Assembly (NCBI GenBank): GCA_965116475.1
Contig: OZ220691.1
Coordinates: 1,792,001 to 1,856,000 of the forward strand
Direction: 5' to 3'
DNA from: Gemmatimonadota bacterium
Lineage (GTDB): Bacteria > Gemmatimonadota > Gemmatimonadetes > Palauibacterales > Palauibacteraceae
Length of the DNA stretch: 64,000 bases
Positions within the stretch are counted from its first letter, which is position 1, and every line of letters starts with the position of its first letter. Shown piece after piece: positions 39,001 to 42,000 of this stretch. Position numbers: made by a program.

Positions 39001-42000
39001 GACGAACATCGATGCAAAGTTCGGCACGTACAGGCTCGAGCCGGACAAAAGGAGCGGTGGCATGAAGGAAGTTTTTCGTAGCCTCGTACCGCCAGAGCAT
39101 AGGAACCCGGGGTTGCTCTACGAGGAGACACAAGTACGGGAACTGAGGAAATGGGCACCCGTGAGAACGTACTTTGGCGACCTCGGAGCAACGGGGGCCA
39201 AAGGACTCCGCTGGCGTTTGAAGGTCAGCCTAATAAGTCGCCATGATGAGGAACTGGCGCGCGAACCAGCCGAACAGCCGTTTGCCTTGATCCTAACGAT
39301 CTCCGATCCGACCCGTACGGCGCCAGTCTACGACGAAGCGGTACGGGCGATTCAGGCCAGATGGGAGATCGAGAACTTGAATCTACGGGTGGGCGCACGC
39401 CTCCGCGCGCAAGCTTGACCCGTGGCCTAAGGAGCAACTGAATGCCTCCGAAGAAGAAGCCAATCAACCAGAAAAAGGAGTTGGTACGATGTCGTTCTTG
39501 AACATCACAAAAGTGTCGGATACTGGTGAGCAGTGTTGGGGAGTCGTCCTGTTTGATGCGGACGGCATGCCGATCCTGCGCAGCGAGAAGGGCGTTACGA
39601 AGGTCGAGGCGCTTGCGATTGCTAAGATCCTGAAATTTGAAGGGCCTGAGGCCGTCGCGGTCGAAGAGAAGGTCGGAGAAGCAGGCGGATTGGGATGGGT
39701 GATCGAGAAGACGGACCGCGGCTGGACGGTGCGCCTTACCCGCGTAGTCGCAACCGCTTTTGATCTGCTGTTGAAACTAGAAGATGCAGAGCAGATTCAG
39801 AAGGTCACGGAGGAGGTCATGGAAGTCGTGAAGGGATGTTTGGCGCGGGTAGAGATAAAATGGGATCCACCCGAAGCGGATCCAGCTTACGACGAGAAGG
39901 AAACCGACGAAACAGAGATCGAAGGGTTACCCGGTAGTTGAGTGAAATTGTCGACGATGATGCAACAGGAGATGAATCAGTGCGTCAACTGGTCGCTGGA
40001 GCAGATTCCCGTGCTAGAGAGTCCAGTATTGTTGATTCTTGACTACAGCCCGAGTGCGAGCGACCGACCCCTCTCCATCGCGCTTGACTGCGGATGCGGA
40101 CCGAAGTGCTGGATGACGGCGTCGGAGGTACGAAAGATCGGGGACAACGCGCCTAAGCGTCATGAGAACTACAAGGAGTTTACTTGGGAGGGACAGAGGT
40201 TTCGTCCGTATTCGATTCAATCGCTCCCGGTCGATGTCTTTGAGGACATTGATGCCCTGATGGCGGTATGTAGGAGATTGTATAACCACGTCGTGTGGTC
40301 GTAGGTGCAATGAGCCTGGACACGCGAACAACGGCGGCTCTCGGGATCGAACTGATGGAGCGGCTGCGATCCCTGCATTACTGTATCGTGGGCTGCGGTG
40401 GGACCGGAGCGACCTTCGCCGAAATGCTCGTAAGGACTGGTGCGACACGGCTCACGTTAATAGATGGCGGGACCGTAAAGAAGTCCGATCTCAATCGGGT
40501 GTTCTCTTTTGCCGTACAGGACGTAGGAGAGCCGAAGGTGGAGGTCCTCCAAAGGCGGCTTAGAGCCGTTGGCCGACCTGAGCTCGAACTACACGCCCTG
40601 TGTGACAGCTTTAGACGACCAGACCAGATACTTGATGGTCACACGCTTGGTCAGAGCGTTCGGGACGCGGTACATGACGCCGATGTTGTGTTTGCCGCGA
40701 CCGACACCAATACATCAAGAATTGGCATCGAGGAGCTTTGCCGGAGCAAGCTACGGGGGATGTTGCTTTGCTGCGGTGTGGAAGTCGACCGGAAGGCCGG
40801 AGTTTATAGATATGAATGTGCTTGGTCACCTAGGACACCGCCCGAACGGGAGGACGTTCAGGGTTACGGTCCGGAGAATGCCTCGTTCGCTTCGATCGTC
40901 CTTGAGGCGACTGCCGTCGCGTTCACTATGCTGCTCAGCCACCTGAAGTGTGACGGTAGCCAGTTCAATCGTTACGGCAAGCGTTACGATGCGACCTTCG
41001 CACCGGTCGAAACGCCCGTTCCGTGAACGTCCAGTGACAATACACATGAGTATTTGGCGGCCAGGACCGCTCGGAGTCGCGACCCACAATGACTCCGTCA
41101 ACGATGGGCACGAAATGCCTGTGGAGCAGCGCGACGCACCTCCTCGGTCGGTCGATCAATAGCGTTTCGAGCGTATCGATGTCAGTGGAGTAATCGCTGT
41201 CGACCCTAAGGTACTTTAAAGCGATCGCGAACTCCTTGTTCGTGACGCCGCCGAAAGGCCAGTTTTTCGAAGCTAAGTTGATAGCTTCAACGATAAGCGG
41301 CTCGGGAATAGACGGGACGGCCCAGTAAAGAGACGACAGGGCGCAGTCGTGGTGACCTTGGCCTAACTGTGTCGGGCCCTTCGTATGCCGGTCCCATGCG
41401 GCTACGGAAATCTGATCGCGAATCCATTGGAGCCGGAATAGGGACAGCCGCCACCACGAAACCGACATAGAAGACTCCAATCATGCGTTCCAATCGACAC
41501 CGTTGCCTGTACACAAGAGGTAGCCCCTGAGCCTGCCACAGAGCGATCGTTCAGCGCCGCGGCGGCTGTCCGCGCTCGGCGGTGGCGAAGATCTCGATGC
41601 CGCCGCGAACGTTCTGTTCGACCTCGACGCGCACCCAGCGCGGCGCCACGGCGTAGACCACGTCGTCGGCGATCCGCGCCGCGAGTGTCTCGCAGAACTC
41701 GCCTTCGTCCCGGAACGACCAAAGATAAAACTTGAGCGCCTTCGACTCCAACCCGCGACCGTCGGGCCCGTAATCGATCGTGACCCGCCCGAAGTCTGGC
41801 TGTCCCGTCTTCGGGCACAGTGACGTGAACTCCAGCGCACGCAAGCGAACGCGCTGGACGTCAACGACGGGGATCGCCTCGACCCGCAGTGCTTCGCGCC
41901 CCTCGTCCGGGTTCCGGGGCCTCGGAAGGGGGCCCGAGGCAGGGAGCCTCGTCATCGGCGGCAACCGGAAACCACGACCGTGCTGCTACCGAATCGGCGG

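Follow-up and report, generated by a model that had tools for sequence, protein, structure and literature searches.

The window analysed here, a stretch of 64,000 nucleotides from a Gemmatimonadota bacterium, contains a cassette of four genes that probably encodes an E1/E2 conjugation system related to the bacterial Bub systems. This system would tag target proteins with a YegP-like protein (p150) and employ a dedicated peptidase (p171) both to process fused precursors and to reverse the tagging. With reasonable probability, the four genes form a diverged relative of the Bub (6E) operons, situated in a horizontally acquired defence island. They would be a Bub relative but not a Bub member, because DUF6527 and the β-grasp modifier are missing. 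A preliminary description had proposed a new, compact system resembling ubiquitination, in which C-termini are activated and transferred. The core of this reading, the accessory nature of the cassette and its defence or stress context are retained here, but the system is not of a wholly new kind. A far relation to Bub operons, raised in that description as a caveat, is supported by the boundary at which modifier and E2 are fused, by E2-E1 fusions, by the invariant Ser of the E2 and, more tentatively, by the invariant Tyr of the E1.

Results

Genes of the cassette

The four open reading frames (ORFs) lie at positions 39489 to 41480 of the window, in agreement with the coordinates given previously:

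39489..39941, forward strand: p150, candidate modifier ('tag'), with an AAGGAG ribosome-binding site 8 nt 5' of the ATG
39939..39944, forward strand: p150/p120 junction, TGA followed at once by an in-frame GTG
39942..40304, forward strand: p120, UBC-like (E2-like) protein; GTG start, in the frame of p150 and abutting its TGA
40295..41026, forward strand: E1, ThiF-type adenylyltransferase, 243 aa as listed
40965..41480, reverse strand: p171, stand-alone papain-fold cysteine peptidase, C39-like
40965..41026, no strand assigned: E1/p171 overlap, the convergent 3' ends sharing 62 nt

Since alignment with its relatives points to the ATG at 40310, the true start of E1 is probably at this position, which would yield a protein of 238 aa. 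Likewise, the database copy of p171 has 167 aa, so that its start is likely the ATG at 41468. The ATG at 40310 follows the p120 stop by 5 nt and, together with the ribosome-binding site and the stop-start junction, suggests that p150, p120 and E1 would be expressed from one tightly coupled operon. A sigma-70 promoter scan returned no sites, and terminator-like sites did not exceed the frequency seen in shuffled sequence.

Distribution and genomic context

Outside the window, the cassette recurs at 15 loci distributed over several phyla. As reported before, none of 113 genomes from the family of the host contains it. In a search seeded with p171, all four genes were present in 12 of 13 genome loci, the thirteenth (L009) being an IS-disrupted remnant; an independent, p120-seeded search recovered the four genes in both of two metagenome loci, and they are also present in genome G404. 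These proportions agree with the synteny described previously for 19 of 19 genome and 3 of 3 metagenome loci, and our denominators are smaller because the pattern scans returned fewer loci. Across 16 loci, E1 and p171 overlap convergently by 20-92 nt in ten, converge without overlap in three and are co-directional in the remaining three, and an HTH_3+Peptidase_M78 neighbour occurs at seven. The range of overlaps and the recurrence of the M78 neighbour are thus as described, with counts that had been given as 13 of 19 and nine of 19. In the phylum sample of the host, a p120-family profile matched one of 400 other genomes, G404, and it matched none of 400 genomes of the phylum to which the genome of L007 belongs. 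Viral contigs contained no match to the p171 and p120 profiles, nor did plasmid and phage records in a tblastn search with p171.

The island harboring the cassette has a GC content of 0.55-0.60 versus 0.70 and, in the window, also holds IetAS and a NotI-type restriction-modification (R-M) system with Vsr. At other loci, the neighbours are R-M and toxin-antitoxin systems, DruA, PLD, Fic and integrase/IS genes. Pfam searches yielded DUF6527 (PF20137) neither in the cassette proteins nor among 119 neighbour ORFs of 15 loci, nor anywhere in the host genome; in the phylum sample, PF20137 is found in 23 of 401 genomes, a tally that includes the unpublished genome G170. No JAB domain was found at the cassette loci. 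Pfam also recognized neither a rhodanese/sulfurtransferase nor an ABC exporter among the 119 neighbour ORFs. A single ORF for an MFS transporter adjoins L015.

A ThiF-type E1 with invariant Cys and Tyr residues

The Pfam match of E1 to ThiF (1.1e-27; 97 bits versus a cut-off of 28) and its PDB matches to UBA7 (2.9e-14), ThiF (6e-10) and BubCD (1.8e-6) reproduce the earlier findings. E1 also matches the PADLOC models for Cap2 (best 4e-14) and, over residues 18-90 only, MccB (3.6e-7). With a ThiF match that starts as early as residue 15 (of 243), E1 does not possess an N-terminal peptide-clamp extension of the MccB type. Its G-C-G-G-T-G loop (as G33-x-G35-G36-x-G38), N67-R68, K81 and D137 recur without exception in 13 E1s; from what is known of MoeB and ThiF, we take these to be the glycine-rich ATP loop, the Arg finger, the Lys and the Mg-binding Asp of a ThiF domain.

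With the Type I Bub E1 profile, E1 aligns in hhalign at a probability of 99.7% (E 5.7e-27), over residues 8-151 only. Its C-terminal half aligns neither to the BubCD profile nor to PDB sequences, the last 99 residues giving no PDB match. This half contains two motifs located after the last core strand, C175-x-W177 and Y191-G192, which are conserved without exception in 17 sequences, four of them p120-E1 fusions. BubCD proteins feature an invariant G/E-Y about nine residues ahead of a P-A-V helix, and by eye, the helix start G-Y-G-P-E-N-A-S-F of E1 resembles this region; given the unaligned C-terminal half, the equivalence of Y191 and BubCD Y370 rests on this comparison by eye. In Bub E1s, the crossover loop contains an invariant Tyr but lacks a Cys; the E1 of the cassette may share the Tyr, yet its C175 is just as invariant.

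A UBC-like partner resembling BubB

The folds of p120 and p150 were read from a predicted model of a natural p150-p120 fusion (pLDDT 85). In an unbiased VIA search, the top fold match of p120 was Citrobacter BubB (9eae_C; Z 6.9, rmsd 4.2, 106-108 of 128 residues), at a Z that lies under 8, the level below which VIA matches may reflect a mere common arrangement. A second BubB structure, 9eav_D, followed at Z 6.8, then the Tsg101 UEV domain (5.3), FANCL (5.2), Cap2 (4.4) and E2 folds, and BubB was also the best match in Foldseek (probability 0.99). At the sequence level, p120 and BubB are not linked: hhalign places S91 of p120 onto the serine of the W-S-R-H motif of Prok-E2_E with a probability of only 1.9%. 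Against DUF6791, the E2 domain of Type II Bub, the p120 family reached 1.1% with the active site unaligned. A PDB profile search with the fusion alignment returned nothing relevant (a single chance match at 0.16), and the best matches in an ESM Atlas search with p120, at 0.82, were aspartic-protease-like clusters under the level that is meaningful for this tool.

Two motifs stand out in p120, K55-C56-W57 and P-Y-S-I, the latter containing Ser91. The invariant Cys had been stressed in the preliminary description; in the wider family, however, C56 is kept in just 61 of 73 members, whereas S91 and W57 are found in all 73 and Y77 in 72. Linear interpolation of the ranges aligned by VIA (model 151-271, chain 237-361) sets S91 at the catalytic Ser of the BubB W-S-R-H motif (S333) and K55-C56 near BubB D299, which adjoins the active site. 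As modelled, p120 has, like the Bub E2s, an invariant Ser in place of Cys on a diverged UBC fold.

The same parts might also perform classical thioester chemistry with E1 Cys175 and p120 Cys56 as the nucleophiles, as in the eukaryotic, Bil and Cap2 cascades, which we regard as unlikely. The conservation of C175 even in distant fusions, the invariance of C56 in the close p120 family (44/44 and 13/13) and the location of C56 beside the active site are all in line with such a cascade. However, 12 of the 73 wider-family members have replaced C56 by Phe, Val or other residues, and the fold alignment sets S91, not C56, at the catalytic position of E2s. Moreover, the sequence pattern suggests that C175 closes the last core strand, whereas the Cys of UBA5 and the Tyr of BubCD are located late in the crossover loop.

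A YegP-like protein with a conserved tail

According to the model, p150 comprises tandem YegP/DUF1508-like domains (approximately residues 1-133) and a conserved tail of about 26 residues. Its closest fold matches in VIA are YegP (2k8e; Z 11.1, rmsd 2.7, 108 of 116 residues aligned) and SO3888 (2k49; Z 10.6), and a single-domain protein, 6q2z, matches with Z 5.0 and rmsd 1.8; the predicted fold is the tandem β-β-β-α pseudo-dimer of YegP. A β-grasp domain is absent from the predicted structure, which shows the two YegP-like domains and a disordered tail only. The p150 of the window has no match to PF07411 at E-values up to 0.1; its distant fusion relatives P0277 and P0278 match this family at 6e-11 and 2.5e-12. 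Conservation extends over all 150 residues and is highest in the tail, where W125-x-P-P-E-A-D-P-A-...-T142-...-G146-x-P-G149-S150, followed by the stop, marks the residues invariant in 47 sequences; the terminal G-S is present in 47 of 47.

In seven of 16 loci (a table of 15 loci plus L058, with the window included), p150 and p120 are fused, a Gly or Arg sense codon taking the place of the TGA seen in the window. In the other nine, among them the window, the stop comes directly after the invariant G-S, and the split always falls exactly at this point. Both forms are also found in 121 database clusters, 62 of which are full p150-p120 fusions and 32 stand-alone p150 proteins ending exactly at [PA]-G-S. 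Fusion had previously been counted in six of 19 loci and a stop after G-S in 13, so that the pattern is reproduced on a smaller set of loci. Similarly, we recovered the four p120-ThiF fusions (P0213, P0243, P0273 and P0292; 365-375 aa) and the two p150-p120 fusions with a Pfam-detectable DUF1508 that had been described, although among 93 representatives of the p120 family, 14 of them scanned with Pfam, and not among 32. The TGA that separates p150 from p120 could be subject to programmed read-through, but this is not needed, because a start codon is located within 0-3 codons of the stop in every split locus.

A stand-alone papain-fold peptidase

For p171, 88 homologues were found. H44, C46, H122 and D135 are invariant, the latter three in 36 of 36 sequences. 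In the predicted model (pLDDT 87.8), an N-terminal helix rich in Trp and Arg spans residues 6-29, C46 opens a helix (46-54) and H122 a strand (122-127). Cys, His and Asp follow each other in the order of the papain-fold triad. Foldseek matched the C39 domains of ComA and PCAT1 (probability 0.92-0.97), and a wide VIA search PeiR (10.3), LahT150 (6mpz; 10.2) and ComA (5xe8; 10.2), with 114-119 residues aligned for the C39 domains; nearly all of the 50 VIA matches listed are papain-fold or related cysteine peptidases, deubiquitinases and toxins. On the model, p171 is a papain-fold Cys-His-Asp peptidase that is closest to the C39 double-glycine peptidases. Pfam (including Peptidase_C39), NCBIfam and PADLOC gave no match at E-values up to 0.1, and a PDB profile search with the p171 alignment gave none up to 10. 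The gene stands alone in 16 of 16 loci and is not the N-terminus of an ABC exporter. The earlier statement that p150, p120 and p171 belong to no known family therefore holds for Pfam, PADLOC and NCBIfam, where none has a match above threshold, but not for their folds, which are recognizable as YegP-like, UBC/BubB-like and C39-like.

C39-type peptidases are best known for peptide maturation, and this association is one argument for a reading without any protein tagging. Here, E1 would activate the C-terminus of p150 in order to modify p150 itself, by an MccB-like nucleotide adduct, a ThiS/MoaD-like thiocarboxylate or a small amine, with p150 as effector or carrier and p171 as its maturation protease. 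E1 indeed scores similarly against ThiF, MoeB, MccB and conjugating E1s, and p150 is not a β-grasp protein and ends in Ser. We nevertheless consider self-modification improbable: a UBC-like protein that carries an invariant Ser and, in relatives, is fused to E1 or to p150 is the signature of a transfer cascade, E1 has no MccB-type clamp, the 119 neighbour ORFs include no Pfam-recognized rhodanese/sulfurtransferase or ABC exporter (aside from the MFS ORF by L015), and p150 is a folded protein conserved throughout its 150 aa. Microcin C-like or other RiPP maturation was rejected for want of a clamp domain and an ABC exporter and for the size of the folded substrate, and a sulfur-carrier pathway for want of a Gly-Gly end and a sulfurtransferase. 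Finally, there is very little chance that p171 is itself the ligase, cleaving p150-p120, holding p150 as an acyl-enzyme on Cys46 and passing it to a target amine, with E1 and E2 left to recycle or prime p150 in its free form: the fused precursor is the most frequent form (62 of 121 clusters) and the papain-fold matches include acyl-transferring enzymes, such as the acyl-enzyme of the phytochelatin-synthase-like Alr0975, but p150 already ends at G-S in nine of 16 loci, the window included, which leaves no peptide bond to drive transpeptidation, and the known parallels to p171, namely the BubC JAB domain, BubE and Cap3, are hydrolases.

Discussion

Proposed mechanism

Under the favoured reading of a Bub-related conjugation system, p150 would be the modifier, with ...G-x-P-G-S as its mature end. 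In split loci, the stop codon would create this end; in fused loci, p171 may cut after G-S, by analogy with the JAB domain of BubCD, which cuts BubAB. E1 would then bind the tail, adenylate the carboxylate of Ser150 with ATP-Mg and take over p150 on a residue of its crossover region, for which we favour Y191 in analogy to BubCD Y370, with C175 as the alternative. From there, p150 would pass to Ser91 of p120 as an oxyester and on to an amine of a target protein. As an isopeptidase, p171 would also remove the tag. Its gene has a transcription of its own, convergent to that of the ligase genes, which may allow independent regulation. At about half of the loci, the HTH-M78 protein, a putative single-chain counterpart of CapH+CapP, might turn on the operon after DNA damage or infection, and the output could be protection against phages or stress.

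Several observations count against the Bub reading: the Z-score between p120 and BubB is under 8 and their sequences are unlinked, p150 is not a β-grasp protein and ends in Ser, DUF6527 and JAB are absent, and E1 has the invariant C175.

Implications

In the literature considered here, all E1/E2 conjugation systems described for eukaryotes, archaea and bacteria attach β-grasp proteins, with the one exception of CBASS, where the cyclase itself is conjugated. Recognition by E1 of a non-β-grasp substrate ending in Ser, such as p150, is without known precedent among conjugation systems. We tentatively propose, while holding it to be somewhat less than an even prospect, that conjugation proceeds here without a ubiquitin fold: E1, E2 and peptidase would recognize a linear tail of about 26 residues, the YegP-like domain would be attached through its C-terminal Ser via Tyr and Ser oxyesters, and the C39-like peptidase would serve as processing enzyme and 'de-YegPylase'. 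If true, a Bub-type Ser-E2 and a ThiF-type E1 would act on a tailed, non-β-grasp protein, and the ubiquitin fold would be dispensable for such chemistry. The catalogue of Bub-like systems would widen past the DUF6527 marker by which members are found, and a papain-fold protease would join the bacterial deconjugases. YegP-type proteins would become linked mechanistically to conjugation pathways, and the widespread, uncharacterized YegP/DUF1508 domain would obtain its first biochemical role, as a transferable tag in stress or immunity; PMC13373217 lists YegP homologues behind DNA-damage-responsive immune regulators in 57 capK+capS cases. Furthermore, if a short tail is enough for enzymatic ligation, it could serve as a protein-ligation tool. 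Should the conjugation reading fail, the cassette would still be a conserved, rare and mobile four-gene unit.

Comparison with known systems

The Bil (BilABCD) and CBASS Cap2/Cap3 systems resemble the cassette in their ATP-dependent E1/E2 conjugation, their dedicated deconjugating peptidase and their location in anti-phage islands. They differ in the use of Cys thioesters, JAB peptidases and larger E1s (IAD-AAD-CYS, or Atg7-like E2-E1), and in what is conjugated: the Bil modifier is a β-grasp protein, and Cap2 conjugates the cyclase itself.

The C39 domains of ComA (PEP; 5xe8/3k8u), PCAT1 and LahT150 (6mpz) share with p171 the papain fold, with the Cys at the N-terminus of a helix, then His and Asp. 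C39 domains cleave after a pair of small residues, Gly-Gly, Gly-Ala or Gly-Ser, and by analogy this specificity would fit the G-S cut site of p150-p120. In contrast to them, p171 has no Pfam C39 match, is a stand-alone cytosolic protein without an exporter gene nearby, and has an E1/E2 pair as its partner.

The closest parallels are with the Bub operons, the published catalogue of which is defined by the DUF6527 (PF20137, BubE) gene and whose protection against phages has not been demonstrated in the literature. Type II Bub (6E.2; BubA, BubBD and BubE of E. coli ZDHYS365), as described by Ye et al. (bioRxiv 10.1101/2024.11.21.623953), is akin to the cassette in having no JAB and in its E2-E1 fusion, an architecture that also exists in the p120 family (4 of 93). 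Its E2 is, however, Pfam DUF6791, which has no profile similarity to p120, its modifier differs, and DUF6527 is missing from the cassette.

Type I Bub (6E.1), for which BubAB, BubCD and BubE of Citrobacter sp. RHBSTW-00271 serve as the reference (Ye, Gong, Chambers, Corbett, bioRxiv 10.1101/2024.11.21.623953), has the same order of modifier, E2, E1 and peptidase. Modifier and E2 likewise occur there as one protein or as two, separated at the C-terminus of the modifier (in the cassette, fused in 7 of 16 loci and 62 of 121 clusters), and a minimal ThiF-type E1 carries an invariant Tyr after the core, to which Y191 may correspond. Both systems have a diverged UBC-fold E2 with an invariant Ser, the Bub protein being the best structural match of p120, both would need a peptidase to expose the C-terminus of fused forms, and both occur together with HTH plus M78-type regulators in a mobile or defence-island setting. 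These regulators are the CapH+CapP pair in Bub operons (31% of cases in Ye et al., bioRxiv 10.1101/2024.11.21.623953) and one fused HTH-M78 protein in the cassette. By contrast, the cassette has a stand-alone papain-fold cysteine peptidase instead of DUF6527 (BubE) and JAB, p120 has neither the W-S-R-H motif nor a Pfam Prok-E2_E match, and the E1 has an invariant Cys175 that Bub E1s do not possess. Lastly, Bub modifiers consist of one to three β-grasp domains with a conserved terminal Gly, whereas p150 is built of tandem YegP/DUF1508 domains and a tail with a terminal Ser. Even so, Gong et al. (bioRxiv 10.1101/2024.11.21.623966) describe seven Bub modifiers, DUF1508-Ubl1, with a tandem DUF1508 ahead of the β-grasp. 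These proteins retain the C-terminal β-grasp domain, whereas p150 runs from its second DUF1508 directly into the tail of about 26 residues; in both, a tandem DUF1508/YegP module forms the N-terminus of a protein that is, or in the case of p150 is proposed to be, activated by an E1, so that there is a precedent for Bub modifiers carrying a module of the YegP type.

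Gene organization

The cassette consists of four genes, of which the last is convergent with the other three:

39489..39941, forward strand, p150, the candidate modifier; ORF with an upstream AAGGAG ribosome-binding site
39942..40304, forward strand, p120, the E2-like protein; GTG start immediately after the p150 TGA, in the same frame
40295..41026, forward strand, ThiF-type E1 (Pfam ThiF); ORF as listed
40965..41480, reverse strand, p171, the papain-fold peptidase; ORF whose 3' end overlaps the 3' end of the E1 gene by 62 nt

The aligned relatives favour the ATG at 40310, 5 nt past the p120 stop, as the true E1 start. 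The E1 is the sole cassette protein named by Pfam, PADLOC or NCBIfam (ThiF, 1.1e-27), and nothing above threshold was obtained in these databases for p150, p120 and p171.

Distribution

Rare and patchy in its distribution, the cassette is also mobile. When genomes, one for each species, were scanned with a p171 profile, 13 loci came up, spread over Binatia, Acidobacteriota, Latescibacterota, Gamma- and Alphaproteobacteria, and tblastn detected the complete four-gene set in 12 of them. An independent scan seeded with p120 returned two metagenome loci, both with the complete set, and a p120-family profile added one further genome with all four genes (G404). This four-gene association exceeds chance. 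At the same time, all 113 genomes of the host's family lack p171. In samples of 400 genomes each, the p120 family was found once among other members of the host's phylum and not at all in the phylum to which the genome carrying locus L007 belongs; the viral contigs, phage records and plasmid records searched contained no copies of the cassette. The thirteenth locus of the p171 scan, L009 (6107-7748), holds a degraded cassette, in which p171 is broken by an insertion with in-frame stops, only the C-terminal ~53 residues of the E1 are left, and p150 and p120 are absent; a transposase-like ORF lies upstream.

Two complete cassettes (L008 and L012) are located in opposite orientation about 26 kb apart on one Bryobacterales MAG contig. 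In locus L015 (3812-4161), the p120 match is split into two pieces that overlap, pointing to a frameshift or a fault in the assembly.

Predicted folds of p150 and p120

Both folds were modelled on a natural p150-p120 fusion, P0123 from locus L001, which is 64% identical to the window proteins, with an alignment of 57 rows. The model has a pLDDT of 85, with values below 50 only in the linker (residues 140-151). In VIA structure comparisons, residues 1-133 match E. coli YegP (2k8e; Z 11.1, rmsd 2.7, 108 residues aligned) and SO3888 (Z 10.6), and single DUF1508 domains are also among the matches; as modelled, the p150 part lacks a beta-grasp. The best match of the p120 part (residues 151-271) is Citrobacter BubB (Foldseek probability 0.99), the E2 of bacterial ubiquitination-like (Bub) operons. 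VIA aligns 106-108 of 128 residues with it at an rmsd of 4.2, with Z scores of 6.9 and 6.8, the former being below the level that VIA regards as safe. BubB is well separated from the remaining matches, and the other top ones are also of the UBC/UEV/RWD kind: in the Foldseek-independent search it is followed by the Tsg101 UEV (5.3), FANCL (5.2) and Cap2 (4.4), and VPS37A and a ubiquitin-conjugating enzyme likewise appear among the next matches, interspersed with type III chaperones.

The p150-p120 junction

Across 16 loci, the window included, p150 and p120 form a single ORF in seven, where an invariant G-S is followed by a codon for Gly or Arg. In the other nine, a stop codon stands exactly after G-S and the start codon follows 0-3 codons further on; six of these nine split loci have the two ORFs in a common frame. 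The same boundary recurs among 121 database clusters, which include 62 full and 8 partial p150-p120 fusions as well as 32 stand-alone p150 clusters that end exactly at [PA]-G-S. The tail is also the best-conserved portion of p150 (W125-x-P-P-E-A-D-P-A...T142...G146-x-P-G149-S150). Together, boundary and tail conservation mark G-S as the probable functional C-terminus of p150, which in turn would imply that the fused forms are released by proteolysis.

Candidate nucleophiles of p120 and the E1

The p120 family has 93 representatives, roughly 60 of them distant, including four p120-ThiF fusions and two fusions with a Pfam DUF1508 match in the N-terminal part. Of 73 p120 domains aligned, all have S91 and W57, 72 have Y77 and only 61 have C56. 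Interpolation from the VIA ranges places S91 at about residue 332 of BubB, the published catalytic serine being S333; as candidate nucleophile of p120, S91 is well supported over C56. On the sequence level, hhalign aligns the family with Prok-E2_E at a non-significant probability of 1.9%, setting P-Y-S against W-S-R at the serine, and finds no similarity to DUF6791, the E2 domain of Type II Bub. The motif W-S-R-H is present in the Prok-E2_E proteins of Bub operons that we collected for comparison from the host's phylum, in which DUF6527 occurs in 23 of 401 sampled genomes, a tally that includes the unpublished genome G170, whose use is confined to this count.

The E1 matches the Type I Bub E1 profile with a probability of 99.7%, over residues 8-151 only (hhalign). 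Further downstream, Y191-G192 and C175-x-W177 are invariant in all 17 E1 sequences, distant fusions included, and either Y191 or C175 is a candidate nucleophile. In BubCD, the JAB-E1 proteins of Bub operons, an invariant Tyr lies ~9 residues ahead of a P-A-V helix; compared by eye, Y191 lies 5-7 residues ahead of the matching helix.

The p171 peptidase

The p171 model (pLDDT 87.8) matches PeiR (Z 10.3), the double-glycine protease LahT150 (10.2), the ComA peptidase domain (10.2) and PCAT1, and nearly all of the 50 matches listed are papain-fold or related cysteine peptidases, deubiquitinases or toxins. In the model, the invariant C46 opens a helix, the invariant H122 opens a strand, and the invariant D135 sits in a turn that follows.

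The peptidase core is preceded by a conserved Trp/Arg-rich N-terminal helix (residues 5-29; 41395..41468, reverse strand; pLDDT ~89), past which many p171 database entries begin (145-aa forms). This helix recalls the hydrophobic extension on BubE, the DUF6527 protein of Bub operons, for which membrane binding has been suggested as possible (Ye et al., bioRxiv 10.1101/2024.11.21.623953).

Genomic neighbourhood

The cassette lies within a low-GC stretch (0.55-0.60, versus about 0.70 outside), beside the following genes:

35944..39418, forward strand, IetA (AAA ATPase) and IetS (S8 subtilase) pair; PADLOC 5e-119 and 1121 bits, respectively
41551..41964, reverse strand, QueF-type gene; Pfam 2.3e-23, host-like GC of 0.68
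42066..44868, reverse strand, NotI-family endonuclease, C5 cytosine methyltransferase and Vsr mismatch endonuclease; Pfam

The IetA/IetS pair ends 70 nt upstream of p150, and a similar pair (40% and 28% identity) adjoins the L012 cassette; this pairing may mean no more than that both travel together in defence islands, or it may reflect a looser link in function. The NotI endonuclease, methyltransferase and Vsr look like a complete type II restriction-modification (R-M) module, and a NotI homologue (57% identity), in two ORFs, adjoins the cassette of locus L006. A single-chain HTH_3 and Peptidase_M78 protein flanks 7 of the 16 loci, mostly divergent from p150. CapH and CapP, as separate proteins, accompany Bub operons in 31% of cases (Ye et al., bioRxiv 10.1101/2024.11.21.623953). 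Further neighbours include R-M parts, Phd/YefM, Fic, DruA, PLD, an alarmone synthetase, an integrase and IS elements.

The QueF-type gene separates two low-GC blocks, one made up of IetAS and the cassette, the other of the NotI R-M system and Vsr, and the island may therefore represent two separate insertions to either side of queF. Its position, 70 nt upstream of p171 and on the same strand, could allow co-transcription of p171 with it. In L006, the HTH-M78 regulator and p150 are separated by an inserted DDE_3 transposase (4053-5132).

Comparison with Bub systems

The best-supported reading is that the cassette encodes a putative Bub-related E1/E2 conjugation system, in which the modifier is best explained as a YegP-like protein recognized via its tail, and the peptidase as a C39-like cysteine protease. 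In the non-subscription literature searched, we came across no E1/E2 cassette described as having a DUF1508-only modifier or a papain-fold peptidase. According to PMC13373217, YegP homologues follow capK and capS regulators in 57 cases, and phage protection by Bub is not yet demonstrated.

Bub operons of Type I code for a Ubl-E2 fusion, a JAB-E1 fusion and DUF6527, and the JAB domain cuts the Ubl-E2 fusion after the last Gly of the Ubl; Type II operons encode a Ubl, an E2-E1 fusion and DUF6527, and both types act via a crossover-loop Tyr of the E1 and an E2 Ser (Ye et al., bioRxiv 10.1101/2024.11.21.623953). Ubl and E2 are split in some Type I operons and fused in others, and the catalogue is defined by DUF6527 (Ye et al., Table S1). 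The cassette shares this organizational logic, but it has neither DUF6527 nor a beta-grasp modifier with a terminal Gly, both of which are defining for Bub. On these grounds we regard it as a new variant rather than a Bub member.
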